Shown here: positions 90 through 11,183 of the stretch, piece after piece
Layout: every line of letters begins with the position of its first letter
How positions within the stretch are numbered: position 1 is the stretch's first letter
From: Candidatus Hodarchaeota archaeon
Lineage (GTDB): Archaea; Asgardarchaeota; Heimdallarchaeia; Hodarchaeales; Hodarchaeaceae
NCBI GenBank assembly: GCA_016839815.1
Contig: JAEOTM010000082.1
Coordinates: forward strand, 1-12,915
Direction of reading: 5' to 3'
Length of the DNA stretch: 12,915 bases
Notes under the pieces: model-generated
Told to the model about the DNA's origin: nothing
The model's database searches: none
What the model saw: the letters and a program-made list of their open reading frames with translations, nothing else
Translations under genes and position numbers: made by a program

Positions 90-1241
90 CTGAGCAATAA
101 TAACAAGCGCGATTATTACGAGGTTCTTGGTGTCCAAAGAGATACTAATGAAAAAGAGATTAAGAAAGCCTTTCGCAAGTTAGCAAGGAAATATCATCCT
201 GATATGAACCCCAACAATCCAGAAGCAGAAAAGCAATTTAAAGAAGTAGCTGAAGCGTTCGAAGTCCTTTCTGATGACCAGAAACGATCACTCTATGACC
301 GATATGGTCATGAAGGACTATCTGGAACCTCCTTTAGAGATTTTTCAGGAATGGGACTAGATGATCTATTTGGTGGTTTTGGAATATTTGATAGTATATT
401 TAATGCATTTGGTGGGGGAACACGAGCCCGAACTTCAGGCCCTCGCGCTAGACGTGGTCAGGATGTAAGACTCAATATTGATCTTTCTTTTGAAGATGCA
501 ATGAAAGGAATGAAAAAAACCATCAAAGTTCCTAATTGGGCTCAATGTCCTACTTGTCATGGAAATAGAGTCAAAGAAGGGAAATCACTTCTTAAGTGTA
601 GCACATGTGATGGAGTAGGGGAAGTGCGTCAAGTACAGAGAACTGCTTTTGGTCAGATGATTAATATTACAACTTGTCCAAAATGTCGCGGGGAAGGGGA
701 GATGTTAAAAAAAGGAACAGAGTGCAAAACGTGTAAAGGGGTCGGTAAGGTAAAACAATCAAGAACAGTGGAAGCTCAGATACCTGCGGGAGTTGATAAT
801 GGAACAAGAGTTGTAATACAAGGAGAAGGACGTCCTGGAGAATTGGGAGGACCTTCTGGAGATTTGTATTTAGTAATAAATGTATTTCCTCATCCATTTT
901 TCCAAAGAAATGGGGCAGATATACTTCTGGAATATCCGATTAGTTTTCTTGATGCAGTCTTAGGGACTAAATTGCTAATTCCTACAATAAATGGAAACGA
1001 AAAGATTACTATTAAACCTGGAACACCATCAGGAGAAGTAATAACTCTTAGAAAGAAAGGTGCTCCTTATCCGAATCGATCAGGGCATGGTGACATGCAT
1101 ATAGTTATTAATGTAAAATTTCCTAGAAAGTTAGAAAAAATTGTAAAACAAACATTAATCGAACTGCAAGAGTCAGATAAAACTGATTATGTATTTCGAG
1201 ACAATTCTGAATTAGCAAAATTCCTGCTTTCGCAAGAATAG
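90..1241 (+). CDS. dnaJ: Chaperone DnaJ (class A Hsp40); probable CTG start, extending the ORF-track start at 204
   Basis: The frame is open from 90: (L/M)[37 protein letters not shown] gives the J-domain with HPD. It is followed by a G/F-rich region, four CxxCxGx(G/R) zinc-finger repeats ([32 protein letters not shown]) and the C-terminal domain ([12 protein letters not shown]). Confidence 0.97.
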
Positions 1242-1250
1242 TTTTTTTTT
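1242..1250 (+). terminator. Oligo-T archaeal terminator after dnaK-dnaJ
   Basis: T9 immediately after the dnaJ TAG, in a 25-nt gap between convergent genes. Confidence 0.6.
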
Positions 1251-1266
1251 CATATTAACTGTTGCT

Positions 1267-2364
1267 TTATTCTCTAAGGGGATTCAATCTTCGTAATTTT
1301 GAGAGATTATGGATGCGGAATGTTTCCCACGGTGTATTCATCAGGATTTTCCAATTACTATAGCAAGAGCAGATTTTAGAGAAATTTTCAGGTAATTTTT
1401 CTTTCTGAACAGCTTTCTCGATAAGTTTAAGTACCAACTTATCACATTTTCCACAGTTATGAGCTCCTCGTTCTTTACCTCCTGCAGTGGGATCACAGAT
1501 TATAGTAGAATTTGGGAAAAGCTCGTTACTCATCTTTATCACTTGAAGAACGGTCCATAACCAAGGAGACTGGTACTCATTTTTTCTAAAGAGCTCATAG
1601 ATCAATGTCCCATTTTGTACATTGCATGGGTTTATTGAAATAACATCAGATCCCAAGTGTTGTGCATCGATTATTGTCTTGATTGCATCTCTTAATGCTT
1701 CTTGTTCATTAAGGAAAGGTGGTTTAATAAAAACGTAACTCTTTACAGTAATTCCTATTGAATGTAGATATTCTAAACTAGATTTAAAATTTTCTAAAGT
1801 TGTACCCTTATTCCAACAGTCTTGTAAGATTGCATTATTAGAGCTTTCCAATCCTAAACCAATCTCTAGAGATACATTTGAAAGTTGTTTGAGTAATTTT
1901 TCAATTACCTTTTTCTCCTTCAGGATGTATTCAGGTCTACATTCGACCGATAATTTGATAACTTTACCAGATTGTGTAATCAGGTCTATTAACAAGTCTC
2001 TTAATTCTTCTGGAACATCATCTTTATCGAAAAAACTCCCAGAGTTAAATATCTGCAATTCTAATGGTTTTGTATATTCTACATCAATAATTACCCTTGT
2101 TAATTCCTCTTTAATTAGTTTAATTGGGATTTTGTTCTCCCTTGAGGAATCATTCACATATCCACAGACAGAACATCCTCCACTTTCTGACAATGCCCAA
2201 CTACATCCTCTGGAAGGAATTAAAACTGTAATTATAAGTAAATTCTCTTTTTCGGATACGCTACTCCAGATTTTTGCATGTGATTTATCCGATATATGCG
2301 TTAAATAGTCTTGCCGAATTCCTTTAATTTTCCTAGTAAGGAGTGGATTTGTCTTATTAAGCAT
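1267..2364 (-). CDS. raSEA: Radical SAM enzyme for archaeosine formation (RaSEA, TIGR01210-type)
   Basis: Atypical radical SAM motif GCSWALSESGGCSVCG, plus IFNSGSFFD, VECRPEYI, IGLGLES, KPPFL, PWLWT and C-terminal RGAHNCGKCD. Overlaps the arcS stop by 8 nt. Confidence 0.9.
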   Translation of the reverse strand: MLNKTNPLLTRKIKGIRQDYLTHISDKSHAKIWSSVSEKENLLIITVLIPSRGCSWALSESGGCSVCGYVNDSSRENKIPIKLIKEELTRVIIDVEYTKPLELQIFNSGSFFDKDDVPEELRDLLIDLITQSGKVIKLSVECRPEYILKEKKVIEKLLKQLSNVSLEIGLGLESSNNAILQDCWNKGTTLENFKSSLEYLHSIGITVKSYVFIKPPFLNEQEALRDAIKTIIDAQHLGSDVISINPCNVQNGTLIYELFRKNEYQSPWLWTVLQVIKMSNELFPNSTIICDPTAGGKERGAHNCGKCDKLVLKLIEKAVQKEKLPENFSKICSCYSNWKILMNTPWETFRIHNLSKLRRLNPLRE

Positions 2365-4237
2365 TATTTTTCACCTTTTGACGAATCTTAACACCTAAAC
2401 CCCGAGGCATGTCCATCAATAATTTTCCGGGAAGATAAGCTACTCCAGTTGCAATAATCTCATTATCCCCATTAACTACGATTACTTCATCATTTATTCT
2501 AATCTCTTGATCAGCTTCTTTTATAGCATTAGCAAATATCGTAGTACCATTAATGATTTCGCCATCAAATCTAACTACATTGTTTGTTAGACCAAATATC
2601 CGCTTTGCTGCTTCAATAGATAGCGTTAATAATCCAGTTGTGGAGCGAAATGTCATTAAATGCTTTCCAGAAATTTGAATTCGAATACCTAGCTCTTTAT
2701 GTCCTTGCAACTTTGATTTTTCAGGAATAAGCACTTTTCCTATATCCCGTCCAAATTGGAAATCAGCTACAGTTCTTAAGAATTCTAACAGCTTGTTTCC
2801 TTTGGAAATTGGTTCAATATCTAAATTTTCTGAAATGAGATGACGAAACTTATATAAACTCTCTTTAGAGATAAGAGATGATTCTACCTCATCGATTAGA
2901 AATATTTCCCTGTTTAATTTTCTACATACATTAGCTAATACCTCTCCTTCTGTTCCCCTAACATATCCTATGAGTTGAATAGCTTCTGGAATTTTATTTA
3001 GAAACGCTTCGAGATCATGATGAAGTAGTTTTTTTTCCACTCCACTCCATTCACCAGTGACTGGAATGTCATAATGTGCAGCGGGGTATGTATATTCTAA
3101 TTCCCTTGGAACAACTCCCAAAGGACTAGTGAGTATTATTTCTGCAATCGAATGACGTTTACTCTTCAATGTTCTCCGAATGACTCTTTGGAAAGCCTGA
3201 TGTGATTTTGATTGAGAATATGGTTTTTTAGCCGAACAAGGAAGGAAAATAATCCCTTGGATATGTGATCCCAGCTGAAATCTATCTTTCACTCGTTTTC
3301 TAAACCGTGCAACTTCAGGTCGAGAAAAATCAGTCTGGTCTGTACAATAAAGCGATCCAGTACTGTAAATTGAACACCCTACATCAAGGGGAATTTGCTT
3401 ATCTATCAACCTGAGCAGTGTCTTCTGAGGAGGGTATGAATTGGAATAAATTCTAACCAAATCTCGGAGTTTTCCATTTTTTAGAGCAACTCTTGTACGT
3501 TTTAGGGCTAGAATAAATTCTTCCACTGAGTTTTCAATTTCTAATACAATATCTGAATTATTAGAAATAGAGCGATATGTAAAGTCAAATAAATCTACAC
3601 CTAAGTAAGCTAAGATTGGAAAGAATGAAGAAGGCACTCCAGGTGCATAGAGTAAAACATCAGGGGTAATTTTTTTACGTACAGAAGACAGATATGAAAG
3701 TAGAAATTTTGGGTGATTGAGGAAAGATGTAATATCTCCCAAACAAATGCCTTCTATGTTCAGCAAGGGGAGATTTTTCAAGGTGTTTACCTGAATGGAC
3801 TTGAAAGGAACGTTTATCATAAATTTGGAATTATTAATAATATTAGTTTTCGATACTAATTCGTTAACTCTTTTATAATAGTTTTTTCCATTATCAATAT
3901 AGATTTCAGGTAAATCCCAAGGAACTAAATTGAAGGAATTGTTTCTAGAAGTCAAGAATTCCTCGGATTTTGGAAAAAACTCTTCAATTTTAGTAAGCTG
4001 AGATAGTGATTTACCTTGCATCTGTAAAGATGGGTATATGTTACAGTTAGGATAAGAGACTGAGTCATGAAATTGAGGTTGAGAGGAAACGTGACTCATA
4101 ATGGTTTTTTTGATAGGATCTTTTATTACTTCATTTCTCTTATAGATATTTAGAAACGTAGGTGTTTCATAAGTTTTTCCCAGATTGAGGATACCAAGCC
4201 GCCCCAGTCCCTCTAACTTTTTGATTTCAAATGACAT
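2357..4237 (-). CDS. arcS: Archaeosine synthase subunit ArcS (TgtA2) with C-terminal PUA domain
   Basis: TGT-like N-terminus (GLGRLG...ETP, YLGVDLFD), ArcS motifs LPCSAKKPYSQSKSH and TSPLGVVPRELEYTYPAAHYDIPVTGEW, ADFQFG, and a PUA domain (IRINDEVIVV...IIATGVA). A GGTG SD lies upstream. Confidence 0.93.
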   Translation of the reverse strand: MSFEIKKLEGLGRLGILNLGKTYETPTFLNIYKRNEVIKDPIKKTIMSHVSSQPQFHDSVSYPNCNIYPSLQMQGKSLSQLTKIEEFFPKSEEFLTSRNNSFNLVPWDLPEIYIDNGKNYYKRVNELVSKTNIINNSKFMINVPFKSIQVNTLKNLPLLNIEGICLGDITSFLNHPKFLLSYLSSVRKKITPDVLLYAPGVPSSFFPILAYLGVDLFDFTYRSISNNSDIVLEIENSVEEFILALKRTRVALKNGKLRDLVRIYSNSYPPQKTLLRLIDKQIPLDVGCSIYSTGSLYCTDQTDFSRPEVARFRKRVKDRFQLGSHIQGIIFLPCSAKKPYSQSKSHQAFQRVIRRTLKSKRHSIAEIILTSPLGVVPRELEYTYPAAHYDIPVTGEWSGVEKKLLHHDLEAFLNKIPEAIQLIGYVRGTEGEVLANVCRKLNREIFLIDEVESSLISKESLYKFRHLISENLDIEPISKGNKLLEFLRTVADFQFGRDIGKVLIPEKSKLQGHKELGIRIQISGKHLMTFRSTTGLLTLSIEAAKRIFGLTNNVVRFDGEIINGTTIFANAIKEADQEIRINDEVIVVNGDNEIIATGVAYLPGKLLMDMPRGLGVKIRQKVKNNA

Positions 4238-4553: not shown

Positions 4554-5975
4554 GTGAAATTTCCCTTGAGCTCTTCCCTTAGTAATACACAGATGATGGA
4601 ATATTTCCGTCCCAGAGGAAAAATCGTTTGTTTAGGAGATAAGATGAAACCAGAACTTGAGCTCGTAAAAAAGATATTAGACACATATAACGACAAGCGA
4701 ATACCTGTTCTTCTTCTTAGCTCTTCCACAAATCTTAGTGAATATGCTGATCAAGTAGTAATCTTTGACTCAGATTCGACAATAGCTCAAGTGCATAATC
4801 TCCTAAATTCCTCTTTCCTCTTTTTTCTATTTAATTCATCTGAAGAAGGAATATTGAGAATCTTGGGAACTATTTTAGCATCTATTGAATACAGAGGTAC
4901 AATCCCAATTTTTATTGATACTGGAAATGGCTTTCCGACCGAGCAAAAGAGAAATTTAGGAGAATGTTATTTTCATTTTGATTTGTTTGAAGAGATTAAT
5001 CAAAAGAATTTTTCAATATTCTTAGAAAGCGCAATCTCCGTTTTATCACCCACCTCAGGGCTTGGTATATCTTTCTCAGATTTAATACAGATTTTCGGGA
5101 AATCAGAAAGTCTATTTTATGGAATTTCTGAATCGAATCAGTTAGAAGATGTCCTTGAGGACTTAGTAAATCAGATTGGGGAAAAGTTAGTACACACATT
5201 ACCTGAGGAATTAGAACGTTTAGAAGCTATTTTTATTTCAGTAATCTCAGGAAATTCAATCAGTTTGCAAACTATGAATAAAATTACCTCTAAATTTGCT
5301 TCAACATTTGGAAGAGAATTCAATATCCATTTTTCTAACTCTGTAGAACCTGAGCTTCAGGGTTTTAAAGCATTAACAATACTTACAGATCTTCATCCTA
5401 TTAATGAAATATTCCCAGTAGCAAAGCCATTTCTAATGTTAGACTTCGAGAGTGAATCTGAAGATACATCAAATGAATTATCCTTCTCGAGTCATAAAGA
5501 GAACCCCTCCAAAGATGATGAAGAAGAGATGAGATTTCATATTCTGGGTAAAATCTTTTCTGAATCTGAAGTGTATATTTTTGATGATGGTGGCCTTCCC
5601 TTATTTGCAAGTCACCGGCCAGCAGGGCAAGAAGTTTGTCTGTATACAGGTTTGTTTTCTGCAATCCAGTCTATGAGTTCCGATTTAATAGGGCACTCCC
5701 CAGATCATCTTACCGCAGGGGATAAGGAATGTGTATTCGTTACACAGAAAGGCCCGAATCAAGTGCAGCTAAGGGGAGTAGCCATTTGTAATGGTGGACA
5801 TGAAGAAACAGCCAAGAATGACCTTAAAGTTTCAATGGATTTAGTCCATAGAATAATGCTTCAGGGAGAACCTGAATACGCTATAAATGATAAAATCCAA
5901 GCAATTCTTGTCAAAAGTTTTCAGAAAGGAGAACTCACAAATGGGTTATCCTTAGCCAAATATCAGGCGAGCTGA
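4554..5975 (+). CDS. Degenerate FtsZ/tubulin-fold protein fused to a C-terminal longin-like domain (start GTG 4554, or ATG 4593/4596)
   Basis: aa ~20-280 align by eye with FtsZ: DLFEEIN...GLGISFSDLIQIF vs FtsZ DAFGAAN...GLMNVDFADVRTVM, and AIFISVISGNSISL...IHFSNSVEPELQGFKALTILTDL vs GVLVNITAGFDLRL...VVIGTSLDPDMNDELRVTVVATGI. There is no GGGTGTG. An acidic linker spans aa ~297-325. aa ~337-460 carry the longin-type pattern VYIFDDGGLPLF...LYTGLFSAIQSMSSDL. Confidence 0.65.
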   Translation: MKFPLSSSLSNTQMMEYFRPRGKIVCLGDKMKPELELVKKILDTYNDKRIPVLLLSSSTNLSEYADQVVIFDSDSTIAQVHNLLNSSFLFFLFNSSEEGILRILGTILASIEYRGTIPIFIDTGNGFPTEQKRNLGECYFHFDLFEEINQKNFSIFLESAISVLSPTSGLGISFSDLIQIFGKSESLFYGISESNQLEDVLEDLVNQIGEKLVHTLPEELERLEAIFISVISGNSISLQTMNKITSKFASTFGREFNIHFSNSVEPELQGFKALTILTDLHPINEIFPVAKPFLMLDFESESEDTSNELSFSSHKENPSKDDEEEMRFHILGKIFSESEVYIFDDGGLPLFASHRPAGQEVCLYTGLFSAIQSMSSDLIGHSPDHLTAGDKECVFVTQKGPNQVQLRGVAICNGGHEETAKNDLKVSMDLVHRIMLQGEPEYAINDKIQAILVKSFQKGELTNGLSLAKYQAS

Positions 5976-5985
5976 AATCATCTAT

Positions 5986-6621
5986 TTATTTGGAAATCGA
6001 GTTTATCGCATTATTAGTATGAAAACGTTCATAGATTTTCTCTACGTATCCAAACTCTTCAATCAGTTCATGAATTCGTGTTGATTCAATATAGACTTCA
6101 GATGACCATAGGATCAAATATGCAGTAATGACGTGTATTTGAGGTGTAATGGATTCTTGTATTTCGAACACGATTTGTTTTCGGAGAGCTAGTTCGGTTT
6201 CATACATATCAATTATTTCTCGAATGGTATTTTGTGCCTGGTCGATAATTTCTAAATCATGGGGCCATTCAACTTTTTCTTTTACAGTACGATTTTTCGC
6301 TGGTTGAAGGATATCGCAATTGAAACTTGTCTCTATTTTTCTCATTTCTCGAATAACATCTTCAAAATGAGCAAGAAATTTATTTAATTCGAGAATATGT
6401 CTATTGATCGATTCAGCAAGGCGGAAAGCTAATCTTCCTTGTACATCATCGAATCGCGTTTTAACAGCTTCTGAGAAAACATCAGATCTCTGAGTCATGT
6501 TATATCTTGATAGAATATTCAATACCATATTTACTGTTCGTAATGACTGGCCCTGTACAGTAGTCCATTTTTTTTGAGAGATTTGAAGCCTCTTCTTAAA
6601 GACTCGTATACTCTGACTCAT
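5986..6621 (-). CDS. CINP/C1orf109(AIRIM)-like alpha-helical protein
   Basis: 211 aa, predicted all-helical. Motifs KWTTVQGQSLRTVNMVLNI, WP, DMYETELALRKQIVFEI and AYLILWSSEVYIES match, in order, the human CINP motifs as recalled (KWETLNDAGFTTANNIANL, WP, EMYRKELLLKRTVAKEL, SYLSMWLHQPYVES). Confidence 0.7.
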   Translation of the reverse strand: MSQSIRVFKKRLQISQKKWTTVQGQSLRTVNMVLNILSRYNMTQRSDVFSEAVKTRFDDVQGRLAFRLAESINRHILELNKFLAHFEDVIREMRKIETSFNCDILQPAKNRTVKEKVEWPHDLEIIDQAQNTIREIIDMYETELALRKQIVFEIQESITPQIHVITAYLILWSSEVYIESTRIHELIEEFGYVEKIYERFHTNNAINSISK

Positions 6622-6846
6622 GAACAGTCAATTCCGAATTTCTTGGACTCTATCCACAAATGAGGGAAAATATTTCCTCAAAACAGGAAGTGAAATTATT
6701 CCTTTAATATTATACCTAATGATTGCGGCATTGAATATGGCCATAGAAAATAATATATTCAAATGGTCTTTTCCCTTTCTTTTACCTAATTTCTTAGTAA
6801 ATTATTACACTAGTGAATAGAAGTAAATAATTTATATTAATCATAC

Positions 6847-9000
6847 TTGTCTTTATGTGTGAGTTGGTTGGTGAAAACGTACCCAGTATTATTCATAACT
6901 TTATTACTGGTTTTTTCTTACAGTAATGCGGATTCAGTCCATAACCATCATAATGTGACTGCTTTTTCTCTAACGTCACACGCCAGTAGCACTGATTTTA
7001 CTAATTCTACAGTTATCCAGTCAGGAATTCCTCAAGAAGGGGTTTTTACAAGTGAGAATAAAACTCACTACTGGAAGTTAGAAGATGTTAATCAAGGCCA
7101 AGTTGTATATCTTTCTCTTACCCCATACAGTGAAATGGAAATAGATCTTTATCGACCATCAGGAGAAAGTTTCTCCCAAATCTTAGAACCTACTGGAAGC
7201 TTAACCGATTATCTTGCTTCTTGGTCGGCAAATGATGATGGGGATTGGATAATTGCTATAAACGATACACGTGTGGCTCCTGATCTAAATGTTACTTACT
7301 CTGTTTTAGTATTTATGCCAAACTCAGCCTTTAGTTTAGATTCAGCCATACTAGTCAATGAGCTTCCAGTTAGAGCAAACTTTACAGTTAGTCATGAAAG
7401 CCATTATTGGAAGGTGTTGCTAAAAGAAAATCAGGTCGGAATATTAAATTTGCGGGAAATCACACCAATTGTACTACGGGAGTCTATAATTACAATATAC
7501 AGAAAGCTCAATCCCCAAAATCCAATTCTTCTCCCATTTGATATATTACAGAGCAATTATAGCTATTCATGGAATGCACCCGCGACAGATACATATTTTG
7601 TGGTCATTACACATAAATCAGAATTCCCTATAGGTCAATATAATATTTCATTTACAGTTGAGTCTGCTGGGTATAGTTTTGAAACCGCACAGGAGATACC
7701 TTTTAATCAGACATTTGCCATCAAAGTTGAACAGGGATTTATTCCTCGTAAACGCTATTATTTCAAATTTAGAATTAATGCAAGCCGTACTATCGCGAAT
7801 ATCCGTGTATTTGAGGTGAATACTACAACATCTACAATATTAGACTATGCGATCGTCGAAATCTTCGATGAGGGTCGTCAAGAACCAATTTTCTTACCCT
7901 GGCATGAGGAACAACAGAAAAGAGATGGTCAGATAAATATCTCTGAAAGGCTTGATGCTGGTATTTATTATCTACGAGTTACACCAGAGTCCAATGCAGT
8001 TGGTACGTTTCAAATATTCTTAGAATATCGTTTACCACAACCGTTCGTATGGAGTATCGTCGCAATTCTTCTAAATATATGTACAATCGTCGTACTTCCC
8101 GTTTATTTAATTTATCTGGATTCTAGAGGAAAGTGGTATAGAGTAAATCAATGGACGGTTGCTACTTCTCTCCAAAATACCTTTAAAATTTTCAGAAATA
8201 GTTTCAGAGGAATATATAATATTAAGGAAGTACCTAGTGACTCTATATTGATTCATATTGCCAGTATTCCTTTTCGGACGTATTCTATCCTAAATTTTGT
8301 GGAATCTTCAGAGAATGAAACACTGGTTTTCTCAAAGCGAATTAATCGTAAATATGAATGGGGAATATACATCCTTGTAGGTTTATTTGTATTTGATGCT
8401 ATGAATATTATATCCTATATTTTGTTTTCTATCCAATTTCTTCCAATTTATTTCACGAATTTAACGTCCCTTATATTATTCTTAGCAATTCCAACCATTG
8501 CATTACTACTCATTGTGTTATTCATTAATGGATCATCATATATGACTTATAGTCAGGTACACAACCGAATATCGTACATATTACAGAATATTGAAGATTC
8601 GGAAGAGAATACGATGTCTTCATTAAGTATGGATCCAATTCAAGCCGCGAAGAGTATAAACTATGTGAGAGTCTTATGGAATCAAGCGAGACACGCTTTT
8701 AAGAGCCAAAATTACGAACTGTTCGTGATCAAAGCCGATGCAGCAGTGAAAAATTTACTCTCCACAAGATTCTTGCAAATCTGTCCTATAAATACCCAAA
8801 CAAAAGCAGATTTTCAAACTCAAGTAGTAGAATTAAGGAAACGAGGATTTGACCTGCCTAATGAGAAAAAAATTGCCCATTTTAGAAATCTTCGGAATAG
8901 GATAGTTCATTCATCAGTTACATTAGGTGAGAAAGAATCTGTTGATTGTTTCGCCTATTATTCCACGTTTATCACTCGATTAGGACTTCGTCCCACGTAA
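6847..9000 (+). CDS. Membrane protein: signal peptide, 3 PPC-like beta-sandwich repeats, 3 TM helices, C-terminal HEPN-like domain (start TTG 6847, or GTG 6871)
   Basis: Hydrophobic N-terminus ending SNA|DS. Three ~110-aa repeats (HYWK/HYWK/YYFK ... GDWII/DTYFV/GIYYL). TM segments at aa ~400-424, ~505-532 and ~540-560. The C-terminus has WNQARHAFKSQNYELFVIKADAAVKNLL and RNLRNRIVH (R-x4-H at nt 8893-8910). Confidence 0.75.
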   Translation: MSLCVSWLVKTYPVLFITLLLVFSYSNADSVHNHHNVTAFSLTSHASSTDFTNSTVIQSGIPQEGVFTSENKTHYWKLEDVNQGQVVYLSLTPYSEMEIDLYRPSGESFSQILEPTGSLTDYLASWSANDDGDWIIAINDTRVAPDLNVTYSVLVFMPNSAFSLDSAILVNELPVRANFTVSHESHYWKVLLKENQVGILNLREITPIVLRESIITIYRKLNPQNPILLPFDILQSNYSYSWNAPATDTYFVVITHKSEFPIGQYNISFTVESAGYSFETAQEIPFNQTFAIKVEQGFIPRKRYYFKFRINASRTIANIRVFEVNTTTSTILDYAIVEIFDEGRQEPIFLPWHEEQQKRDGQINISERLDAGIYYLRVTPESNAVGTFQIFLEYRLPQPFVWSIVAILLNICTIVVLPVYLIYLDSRGKWYRVNQWTVATSLQNTFKIFRNSFRGIYNIKEVPSDSILIHIASIPFRTYSILNFVESSENETLVFSKRINRKYEWGIYILVGLFVFDAMNIISYILFSIQFLPIYFTNLTSLILFLAIPTIALLLIVLFINGSSYMTYSQVHNRISYILQNIEDSEENTMSSLSMDPIQAAKSINYVRVLWNQARHAFKSQNYELFVIKADAAVKNLLSTRFLQICPINTQTKADFQTQVVELRKRGFDLPNEKKIAHFRNLRNRIVHSSVTLGEKESVDCFAYYSTFITRLGLRPT
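6991..8028 (+). repeat. Three tandem diverged protein-level repeats (PPC-like), approx. nt 6991-7317, 7324-7659, 7666-8028
   Basis: Each unit has an F/L-x-x-A/S-x-x-I/V start (FTNSTVI, LDSAILV, FETAQEI), an aromatic-aromatic-K strand, an I/L-Y/F strand, a W/Y-hydrophobic strand and a terminal Y/F strand. Confidence 0.7.
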
Positions 9001-9118: not shown

Positions 9119-9388
9119 ATGACGAAGACCACTCTTGAAGAAGTACAACTTCCAAACTCTTGTAAAAAGGTATACAGTGTAATTCTTGAAGAGGGACCCG
9201 TAAGTTCCAAGGAAATTGTCGCACGCGTTTCCTGCTCGACCAGGTCAGTCCGATACGCGCTAAAAAGACTTTTGGATGATGAATACGTCGAAAAACGTCC
9301 ATGTTTATCAGATATGAGACAGACCTTATATTGTGCAAATATCAATAAAATCAAGGGAGAAATTTACTCTTTCAGAAAAGTATTATGA
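9119..9388 (+). CDS. Small winged helix-turn-helix (MarR-like archaeal) transcription regulator
   Basis: LPNSCKKVYSVILEEGPVSSKEI...STRSVRYALKRL...DMRQTLY fits the archaeal LPxSxKxV...RTVRYAL...DxRQxxY wHTH pattern. Confidence 0.85.
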   Translation: MTKTTLEEVQLPNSCKKVYSVILEEGPVSSKEIVARVSCSTRSVRYALKRLLDDEYVEKRPCLSDMRQTLYCANINKIKGEIYSFRKVL

Positions 9389-9439: not shown

Positions 9440-10678
9440 TCATTTTCCACCAATTTTTATTGAGCTTTTCGCTAATCTATGATTTTCACCAATGTAACAA
9501 TCAGCTTTGATTACTCGACCGTCAAAATGAGTCTGTTCTAGATCAAATTTGAATGTGTTTTCGAAGGAAAAGGTTTCACCTTCTGCAAGGGAACTAATCA
9601 GTTTCTCTTCAGTTCCCTGAGAAATCGAGACTCCCTCAGGTAGTTCGATTTTAATTTTAATATTCTGTATTGAGATTTTCCCAATATTTTCCACAAAAAA
9701 TGTAACCATGTATTCTAAATCCTCTTCAATCATCTCAGATTCCATTCTCAGATTCATTGCAGGTTCTGCATCTTTTGCTTCAATCGTATACAAATTTGAG
9801 TTACTCGGATATTCTCCCTCTTCATTTGGTATACTGTAAGTTATCATCAATGGACCTACCTGCCAACTTCCAGGTAGATTGGGAATCAAGGCAAAGTTGA
9901 TTGTATAATTTTCTCCTGTACTAAGCTTTAAGGGTAACTCTGGTGTGGTAGCTGAAATTAATCTCCCTTGAGAACCAGTCTTCAAAAAAACTGTATTTAC
10001 AGAGATCGGTGCATGGGCTGTAAGGGCCGCTGATAATAAAAACTCGGATCCCTTCTCTATTATTTGGTTCTTCTCACCTATAAAAACCTCTGACTGGCAA
10101 AGAGAACATCTCTGCATAATTTCCTCTGCTTTTTTCTTAATTTCAACAAATTCTTCAGGAATAGCAATTGTGGGTAATGGTTCATGTTCAACAAATGTCT
10201 CAGAAGAATGAATCAATGTCCATGCTAGTTTTATCGCTTTACCATATGAATCCTCTAAACTTCGTTTATTTGAATCATAGATAGACGAGAGCTTTTCAAA
10301 ATTTTTTTCTGAGAGGTAAATTAAGAATTGTAAGTATTTTATTTTGTTAGAAGCGATTTTAGGCTTTTTACTTGAACGGATCATTTGGAGTGTACGATCA
10401 ATGCTTTGAAATATCTCTCTATTAGATTTACGCTCCGCAGTAACTCGTAGTATTTGCTGATAATACAATTCAGATGCATTTTCATACATTTTAGCTTTTT
10501 CTGCAGACAAAGCAGCGTTATCAAGAGCTAATAGTTTCATTTCTTTTGTATCGAATTGTTGATAAGCTTTTTGAAACATTTTATGTGCTGCTTTAAAATT
10601 ATTTTTCTCAAAGGCTGATCTTCCCTTTTCAAAATTCGTTTGGGGATCTACACCTAGGATTCGTCGAATGAAAGACAT
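9440..10678 (-). CDS. Cytoplasmic TPR/alpha-solenoid protein with two C-terminal Ig-like (BatD/CARDB/ASH-like) domains
   Basis: aa ~12-190 are helical with a TPR pattern (FEKGRSAFEKNNFKAAHKMFQKA; NAALSAEKAKMYENASELY). aa ~193-302 and ~306-410 have Ig-fold motifs (LSTGENYTINF...PGSWQVGPLMITY; VENIGK...NIKIKIELPEGV...LAEGETFSF). No signal peptide or TM. GGTG SD 5 nt upstream of the ATG. Confidence 0.7.
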   Translation of the reverse strand: MSFIRRILGVDPQTNFEKGRSAFEKNNFKAAHKMFQKAYQQFDTKEMKLLALDNAALSAEKAKMYENASELYYQQILRVTAERKSNREIFQSIDRTLQMIRSSKKPKIASNKIKYLQFLIYLSEKNFEKLSSIYDSNKRSLEDSYGKAIKLAWTLIHSSETFVEHEPLPTIAIPEEFVEIKKKAEEIMQRCSLCQSEVFIGEKNQIIEKGSEFLLSAALTAHAPISVNTVFLKTGSQGRLISATTPELPLKLSTGENYTINFALIPNLPGSWQVGPLMITYSIPNEEGEYPSNSNLYTIEAKDAEPAMNLRMESEMIEEDLEYMVTFFVENIGKISIQNIKIKIELPEGVSISQGTEEKLISSLAEGETFSFENTFKFDLEQTHFDGRVIKADCYIGENHRLAKSSIKIGGK

Positions 10679-10778: not shown

Positions 10779-11183
10779 CTATGAAGATCTAATAAATTCA
10801 ATTAATTCTCTTTCTCGCTCCTTAAGAAGCAGAATTAATTTTCCCTTCAACTTTTCTGCATTTTTTTCAGTCTTCCCCAAATCATAGACTCTGCGAGAGA
10901 GTTCAATATCACCTAATACGTAATTAATCCATAATGCGAGATCTGAACGGACGACTGGGCCATCTAATTGCTGGGGTTCGAAAATGTTTTGAGTAGTTTC
11001 TCTAAAAACATGAAATTGAGTAATAGTTGCTGGTATTTCTGATAATGTGGAAATTAATTCTGACAAATTGGAAATTGTAGCGATAGTTCTACCCTGATTT
11101 CCAATGAACCGAAACGCAAGTTCAGGACTGCATTTTTTGAACATATCCTTAGCAGAAGTATGAGAGATTTCTATTCCAGCCAC
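10779..11183 (-). CDS. DUF5752-like small protein
   Basis: Pattern AFRF...G...SNLSEL...IP...QFH...SDLALWINYVLGDIELSRRV is characteristic of DUF5752. GTG start. Confidence 0.7.
   Translation of the reverse strand: MAGIEISHTSAKDMFKKCSPELAFRFIGNQGRTIATISNLSELISTLSEIPATITQFHVFRETTQNIFEPQQLDGPVVRSDLALWINYVLGDIELSRRVYDLGKTEKNAEKLKGKLILLLKERERELIEFIRSS

Follow-up and report, generated by a model that had tools for sequence, protein, structure and literature searches.

We report a gene on the forward strand (6847..9000) of a 12,915-nucleotide stretch of a Candidatus Hodarchaeota archaeon genome (contig JAEOTM010000082.1, assembly GCA_016839815.1; hereafter the window), whose product is predicted to join a glycosylated outer array of three beta-sandwiches, through the membrane, to a cytoplasmic HEPN domain with an intact R-N-x3-H motif. 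Taking all RNase readings together, we consider it quite probable that this domain cuts RNA. The reading we prefer, with slightly less than even confidence, is that of a membrane-embedded housekeeping sensor RNase of Hodarchaeales, regulated from outside the cell; it is built on sequence and structural models. An earlier note, made from the letters alone, had proposed a receptor RNase working as a kinase-less IRE1-like signalling or abortive-defence system. That interpretation as a whole is partly supported, and the RNase activity and the activation by ligand-induced dimerisation that it put forward stand as proposals from sequence and models. The features of the gene are as follows (all on the + strand).

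~6820-6836: AT-rich box resembling a B recognition element (BRE) and TATA box, putatively a promoter; kept in five aligned upstream regions
6847..9000: whole open reading frame (ORF), 717 amino acids (aa) as called; full-length homologues have 694-774 aa
6859..6930: predicted signal peptide or signal anchor, aa ~5-28; hydropathy peak, helix 5-24 in the model
7000..7320: beta-sandwich 1 of PPC/collagen-binding type, aa 52-158; VIA Z 10.8 to PliG, part of the match to the tandem collagen-binding domains (CBD) of ColG
7354..7665: beta-sandwich 2, aa 170-273; VIA Z 11.2 to p24 GOLD, matched by the repeat-3 profile with E 1.4e-5
7666..8031: PPC-type beta-sandwich 3, aa 274-395; VIA Z 13.4, root-mean-square deviation (rmsd) 1.9 to ColG CBD 3b
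8056..8124: transmembrane helix (TM) 1, aa 404-426, running out to in by hydropathy and model; W402 and P418 nearly invariant
8140..8343: first part of a cytoplasmic KA1-like domain, aa 432-499 (strand, helix, four strands; VIA)
8350..8532: TM2-loop-TM3 hairpin, aa 502-562, interrupting the KA1-like fold (hydropathy, model); loop poor in K/R
8533..8598: closing helix of the KA1-like domain in the model, aa 563-584; the linker after it, aa 586-593, is modelled with low confidence
8635..8988: HEPN-fold domain, aa 597-714, net charge about +9 to +10; predicted local distance difference test (pLDDT) 92 when modelled alone
8737..8751: helix-2 D631-x3-K635, with Lys/Arg for the canonical Glu and an invariant Asp one turn earlier
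8893..8910: R683-N684-x3-H688 (RNRIVH), putative catalytic motif located where the penultimate helix ends; R, N and H invariant in all 21 homologues

The C-terminal domain, which the earlier note had called HEPN, is a member of this superfamily by fold and motif, although it lacks the E-x3-K signature of helix 2. In VIA structure comparisons it matched AF0298 (2hsb) with Z 11.7 and rmsd 2.9 over 119 residues, at ~13% identity, and the best 16 matches were all HEPN or HEPN-clan proteins, led by AF0298, AbiA, 4nqf, Sacsin, TT1696 and Csm6 (Z 9.6 for Csm6 and 6.2 for HepS). A Z of 11.7 is moderate by itself for a helical bundle; it is the uniform ranking together with the motif that makes the case. 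Foldseek gave a similar ranking, with a TM-score of 0.72 to 2hsb and weak E-values (best 0.033), and 15 of 23 family members weakly matched Pfam RiboL-PSP-HEPN. When solved structures were searched by sequence, neither the full-length nor the HEPN profile found a HEPN match, searches of the whole protein against Pfam, NCBIfam and PADLOC returned nothing above cut-off, and ESM Atlas feature searches gave scores under 0.9 or no match. KEN, Las1 and Cas13 chains are absent from the best 50 VIA matches listed, which does not exclude them.

The motif had been described as intact, and it is also conserved: R683, N684, V687 and H688 are invariant in all 21 divergent homologues. Among the 14 most distant ones identity is 40-56% in the HEPN domain, compared with 18-28% in the ectodomain and 13-22% in the middle region. 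Conservation spans the whole HEPN domain, including R608, R664, R711 and R715. In the model the penultimate helix carries the motif at its end and stops one residue short of H688; this is the placement described for the superfamily (PMC3710099). Related members of this HEPN subfamily occur in other fusions, namely P0087 (Zn-finger-like), P0089 (leucine-rich repeats, LRR) and a Zn ribbon-TM protein of another Asgard family. The HEPN domains of P0087 and of the Zn ribbon-TM protein lose the His yet keep the core residues W611, F626, D631, R641 and P671. Hence, retention of N and H is specific to the glycoprotein family, and this favours catalysis.

These relatives are diverse. P0087 (L093 4001-4837), P0089, P0088 and P0092 comprise putative Zn fingers rich in Cys that are joined to a HEPN without the His, an LRR-HEPN fusion whose motif is intact, and one DUF4145-like member. 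The Zn ribbon-multi-TM protein with a His-less HEPN end (L056 1495-2526, L057 1498-2535, L058 1495-2577 and L091 4001-5002; one member labelled Lokiarchaeota) is encoded by a gene that has a helicase-ERCC4 gene on one side and one for a GCD14-type methyltransferase on the other.

The arrangement of the protein in the membrane rests on hydropathy, with hydrophobic segments at aa ~5-24, 404-426, 505-527 and 539-562, and on a full-length AlphaFold2 (AF2) model built from 49 homologues (mean pLDDT 81, predicted template modelling score 0.51, domain orientations uncertain). Together with sequon counts, they bear out what had been read from the letters: an ORF at 6847-9000 with a signal peptide, three beta-sandwiches, 12 sequons, three TM helices and a helical C-terminal domain. 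The architecture of ectodomain, membrane and putative RNase is thus as described, but one domain had been overlooked. The 78-residue loop after TM1 and the helix after TM3 together form a KA1-like domain, interrupted by the TM hairpin. In the full-length model this split domain (aa 432-584) matches the KA1 domain of Chk1 (5wi2) with VIA Z 11.6 and rmsd 2.2 over 89 of 93 residues, followed by the KA1 domains of AMPK, METTL16, SAD-B, MARK and TUT1. As modelled, it has the same two-helix, five-strand fold of ~90 residues as the KA1 domains of Chk1, MARK, AMPK, METTL16 and TUT1, but with a hairpin inside and no sequence match; the fold class also takes in SRPBCC/START halves, and the shared fold implies neither ancestry nor function. 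The domain is basic, with 12 K/R against 5 D/E in aa 427-503 and a net charge of +7 (+3 on average over the family). Elsewhere in the 400 Asgard genomes searched and in the own genome, a 29%-identity profile of limited reach gave marginal partial matches only for a split KA1 module.

The two KA1-like halves must share one face of the membrane and no TM helix follows them, which therefore places the HEPN domain opposite the ectodomain. A cytoplasmic HEPN domain, as the earlier note had deduced, is also suggested by several other lines of evidence. K/R counts show a positive-inside bias (1.3 before TM1, 2.5 after TM1, 3.25 before TM2, 0.65 in the hairpin loop and 2.1 after TM3). N-x-S/T sequons are asymmetric: the ectodomain has 12 against 3.8 expected, a number reached in 0 of 10,000 shuffles, and the 21 divergent homologues have 231 in the ectodomain (107 expected) and 32 in the cytoplasmic parts (37.5 expected). 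The genome encodes an STT3-family protein. Finally, the distant homologue P0070 has two extra TM helices between ectodomain and KA1-like domain, five in all, so that parity is preserved. The computational findings on which the receptor-RNase proposal could have failed were a C-terminal domain of another fold, an extracellular C-terminus or unconserved R and H, and none of them was made.

On the outer side, sequence and model agree with a glycosylated triple-PPC array. The ectodomain repeats fit the PPC/collagen-binding class, a jelly-roll-like beta-sandwich of ~105 residues, and PPC clusters top the atlas search; Pfam matches to these repeats were all sub-threshold. PPC and clostridial collagen-binding domains share the fold of the three repeats (Z 12-13.4), which here stand ahead of a TM-HEPN module and not in a protease. 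In the third repeat E354 is invariant and G361 near-invariant among homologues. Matches of the ectodomain to SID-1/SIDT1 prompted the idea of RNA sensing outside the cell; we rejected it, the match being a generic sandwich match and the ectodomain acidic (about -20 per sequence).

We then considered how the gene is distributed and inherited, using a profile search of 400 Asgard genomes, 24 from Hodarchaeales and 376 others. A homologue was matched in 24 of 24 Hodarchaeales genomes (rpoB was matched in 22 of 24), and the full architecture in 0 of the 376 others, three genomes of one other Asgard family matching through the His-less Zn ribbon-TM-HEPN only. The gene is thus a marker of Hodarchaeales. 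A library-wide profile search gave only 30 clusters, of which roughly half are full-length proteins of this architecture; the labels on homologues read Candidatus Hodarchaeales, Hodarchaeota or Heimdallarchaeota. Ectodomain and HEPN remain fused in every full-length member, and the number of three repeats is kept family-wide together with E354, G361, W402 and P418. Of 16 splits, 12 are common to the protein and RpoB trees, without any clash between supported splits, and within the own family the correlation of distances with RpoB is 0.62, reached by 0 of 999 permutations. Pairwise ratios of nonsynonymous to synonymous rates (dN/dS) are ~0.01-0.11 for HEPN and ~0.08-0.29 for the ectodomain, never above 1 in any domain; they are rough, as dS is often above 1. 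Ubiquity, agreement with RpoB, purifying selection and the lack of defence or MNT genes nearby argue for a housekeeping role over abortive defence.

Most Hodarchaeales genomes have one copy. In G013 and G014 second partial pieces lie at contig ends (88% and 91% identical) and are probably co-binned relatives; G008 has a gene fragment only, also at a contig end. In G011 (C40; L061 1449-1600) a 152-nt copy of the 3' end of the gene, 91% identical, lies beside a GMP synthase gene and away from the full copy, possibly as a remnant of integration or rearrangement.

How might such a protein work? Each active site of a HEPN RNase takes two domains. In the mechanism that we propose, the glycosylated triple-PPC ectodomain would stand outside the cell, TM1 would lead into a membrane-apposed KA1-like domain pinned by the TM hairpin, and a short flexible linker would carry the basic HEPN domain with its R-N-x3-H into the cytoplasm. 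Going by HEPN biochemistry, the HEPN domains of two copies would come together as a single composite RNase site that needs no metal. Ligand binding or clustering of the ectodomain, or the condition in which the glycoprotein envelope is, might then alter the distance between the two TM/KA1 units or their angle, aligning or misaligning the two motifs. The KA1-like unit would relay the change and may help to hold RNA or anionic lipid, and the output would most likely be a selective cut in a cellular RNA at the membrane rather than suicide of the cell. This specific chain, a kinase-free single-chain receptor RNase in which a cue sensed by PPC domains passes through a membrane-split KA1-like relay to a HEPN domain that cuts specific cellular RNA, is possible, and we hold it a little more tentatively than the general reading.

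Parts of this scheme have precedents. Csm6 and HepS are activated allosterically, HepS being a pre-formed tetramer (PMC10897365, PMC13043305), and therefore dimerisation is only one possible switch. KA1 folds are RNA-binding partners of RNA enzymes, and the KA1 domains of TUT1 and METTL16 bind RNA (PMC7229813); a title in the reference list of the same paper has the KA1 domain of MARK kinase binding acidic lipids. Sensors made of TM-HEPN proteins have been predicted in bacteria (PMC3710099). If active and gated, the protein would be a worked archaeal example of a cell surface signalling directly to RNA. Such a layout is known from eukaryotic IRE1, and for bacteria it was predicted in 2013 (PMC3710099). 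HEPN RNases of prokaryotes are mostly patchy conflict toxins, whereas the Hodarchaeales gene is fixed, vertically inherited and joined to a glycosylated surface domain. If the receptor-RNase reading is true, an archaeal order close to eukaryotes would have, in this core signalling gene, invented IRE1 logic independently. With this gene it can be asked whether a HEPN toxin had already been domesticated in Asgard archaea to control RNA at the membrane, and the domain, at 120 residues, lends itself to expression and assay.

Several observations weigh against a regulated sensor RNase. One concerns the active site. The helix-2 Glu, proposed to support the HEPN active site (PMC3710099), is Lys or Arg in 21 of 21 homologues; the earlier note had spotted this replacement, and the profile alignment indeed puts K635 on the Glu of E-x3-K. 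The E-x3-[KR] signature, present in many but not all HEPN families, is therefore absent, and its Lys position is Glu in 12 of 21 homologues, a charge swap. This is a real deviation, not a disqualifying one. The motif Arg of inactive Csm6 is held by E332 (PMC10897365), a residue that by VIA-aligned ranges probably corresponds to K635. Since this Glu restrains the motif Arg when the enzyme is inactive, its loss need not abolish catalysis. The other points concern sensing and coupling. E354 is the sole invariant residue of the ectodomain and no conserved ligand site stands out. The KA1-like region also matches SRPBCC/START-like folds (Z 9.1-9.7) and has no invariant residue in the homologue alignment, hence none that is basic. 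The low-confidence linker between KA1-like domain and HEPN weakens rigid coupling. Across deep lineages, no conserved partner or target gene lies near the homologue. Complex prediction for a HEPN homodimer scored 0.45, and one unrelated control 0.71; we did not use it as evidence either way.

The poor conservation of the ectodomain in distant members and the flexible linker would suit a simpler arrangement, in which HEPN processes or degrades RNA, ungated or gated by its substrate, and the glycosylated PPC stalk only anchors or positions it. Motif invariance, selection and core-gene behaviour favour this tethered RNase as much as they favour a sensor, and C6orf70 and Las1 are HEPN proteins recruited to core RNA handling (PMC3710099). 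Yet, three conserved repeats are superfluous for a simple tether, and their number, the four family-wide residues and purifying selection on the ectodomain suggest that more is required of it. We regard the tether as somewhat unlikely.

The HEPN domain could also be the non-catalytic tail of a receptor, binding RNA, a nucleotide or a conserved protein partner without cutting. The lost helix-2 Glu points this way, the conservation of R608, R664, R711 and R715 across the domain resembles a partner-binding surface, and the membrane-anchored His-less relatives in another Asgard family indicate that the subfamily has non-catalytic uses. But N684 and H688 are retained only with this architecture and decay in the sister fusions, and the motif is placed as in HEPN RNases (PMC3710099), which makes such a tail unlikely.

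The abortive-defence role suggested by the earlier note, in which virus sensing at the surface would lead to cell shutdown, fares worse, and we consider an abortive-infection or toxin system very unlikely. In its favour, HEPN RNases are mostly parts of conflict systems (PMC3710099), HepS is a single, constitutively produced HEPN protein that senses a phage protein and acts (PMC13043305), and the ectodomain diverges faster than the effector. Nevertheless, the toxin-type HEPN PF05168 occurs in 10 of the same 24 genomes, all of which have our gene; the tree follows RpoB without supported conflict, synteny within the own family is stable and dN/dS never exceeds 1. PADLOC gave no convincing match for the protein or its neighbours.

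The likeness to IRE1 deserves separate treatment. IRE1 and RNase L share with this protein a non-cytoplasmic sensor, a membrane passage and a HEPN-derived RNase, and the RNase motif of IRE1 is R-N-x3-H. They differ in that IRE1 is single-pass, against three TM helices here (five in P0070), and that the ectodomain is of PPC type and a KA1-like domain replaces the kinase. Pfam found no kinase or pseudokinase and other folds account for the model. KEN domains are circularly permuted (PMC3710099), whereas the matches here run end to end across the domain; no KEN-type permutation was seen, the closest listed matches being unpermuted prokaryotic HEPNs and Sacsin (unlisted families are not excluded). 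The protein is not an IRE1 family member because it has no kinase; of the kinase-less IRE1-like system once proposed, the analogy of layout stands and family membership does not. An archaeal forerunner of IRE1, with the layout kept by shared ancestry, is extremely improbable: it would fit the common outline and the debated proposal that Hodarchaeales are close relatives of eukaryotes, but the missing kinase, the three TM helices, the PPC ectodomain, the KA1-like insert, the unpermuted matches and nearest folds among prokaryotic HEPNs and Sacsin all speak against it.

The sensor RNase that we favour would work like the sensors proposed for bacterial membrane HEPNs (DUF4145-TM, Abi2/Swt1-TM and HEPN-2TM-Zn ribbon; Anantharaman et al. 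2013, PMC3710099), by analogy, though it falls in none of their three groups. These proteins also join a cytoplasmic HEPN to TM helices and were proposed to process RNA upon surface stimuli (PMC3710099), and weak DUF4145 matches occur among relatives of the Hodarchaeales protein. They have one or two TM helices and no described PPC array or KA1-like insert, whereas the Hodarchaeales protein is an archaeal core gene product with a 370-aa glycosylated ectodomain; both are predictions only. The signatures of the three groups (a single TM with a strict WP, an alpha-helical domain-TM-HEPN order, and HEPN-2TM-Zn ribbon) are absent, W402 being near-invariant and the next Pro not. C6orf70/DUF4209 (ERMARD) is likewise a membrane-anchored HEPN and core gene product predicted to degrade RNA at the membrane (PMC3710099), but it is eukaryotic and single-pass, and DUF4209 is not among the Pfam matches listed for our protein. 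Csm6 and HepS share the HEPN fold, R-N-x3-H and allosteric switching; they differ as soluble defence proteins without a membrane part that respond to cyclic oligoadenylate or to a phage tail protein. The best structural matches are HEPNs of the toxin-antitoxin type (AF0298, HepT, Sacsin HEPN), but the protein is not a HEPN-MNT toxin: no MNT gene is adjacent, the distribution is not patchy, identity is ~13% and E-x3-K is replaced. In the literature, of which our coverage is incomplete, we found no paper on this protein and none combining Hodarchaeales and HEPN.

The start codon probably differs from the one called. TTG 6847 is not kept in relatives across five aligned upstream regions, whereas GTG 6859 is, behind the conserved AT-rich box; hence, the true start is probably GTG 6859 or, alternatively, TTG 6868. 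The window neighbours comprise DnaJ, RaSEA, ArcS, a C1orf109-like gene and a winged-helix gene, and gene order is stable within the own family and differs in distant lineages. As the earlier note had remarked, no MNT gene is adjacent, neither among the window neighbours nor in five distant homologue loci, which also lack defence genes near the homologue; Polbeta-family genes are present on other contigs.

The C1orf109-like gene (5986-6621, - strand; PF15011, E 3.9e-11, above cut-off) belongs to a eukaryote-type ribosome biogenesis family and is head-to-head with the HEPN gene in nearly all own-family loci reaching that far, not in distant lineages. Directly after the HEPN gene lies that of a small winged-helix protein (9119-9388, +), with 96-98% identity in close relatives and missing from this position in eight own-family genomes. 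We rejected a functional link to either gene, including a HAC1-like target downstream, as neither is kept in distant loci.

Further out, DnaJ, RaSEA and ArcS (archaeosine synthesis) genes occupy 204-4237, RaSEA and ArcS overlapping by 8 bases. A 473-aa protein (4554-5975, +) with a weak FtsZ C-terminal match (E 0.18) is 58-87% conserved and syntenic in the family, and a 27% match to it adjoins the HEPN gene in G023. Always downstream in the family is a 412-aa helical-repeat and beta-sandwich protein (9440-10678, -; HEAT_Nup120, E 1.1e-6), and a DUF5752 protein (10779-11183, -) is ~91% conserved in close relatives. In three distant loci (L094 4050-4760, L096 2772-3476 and L066 2763-3515) a gene family of 234-250 aa, not found in the own genome, lies with an SCP2 gene upstream of the homologue, its members being 36-63% identical to each other.

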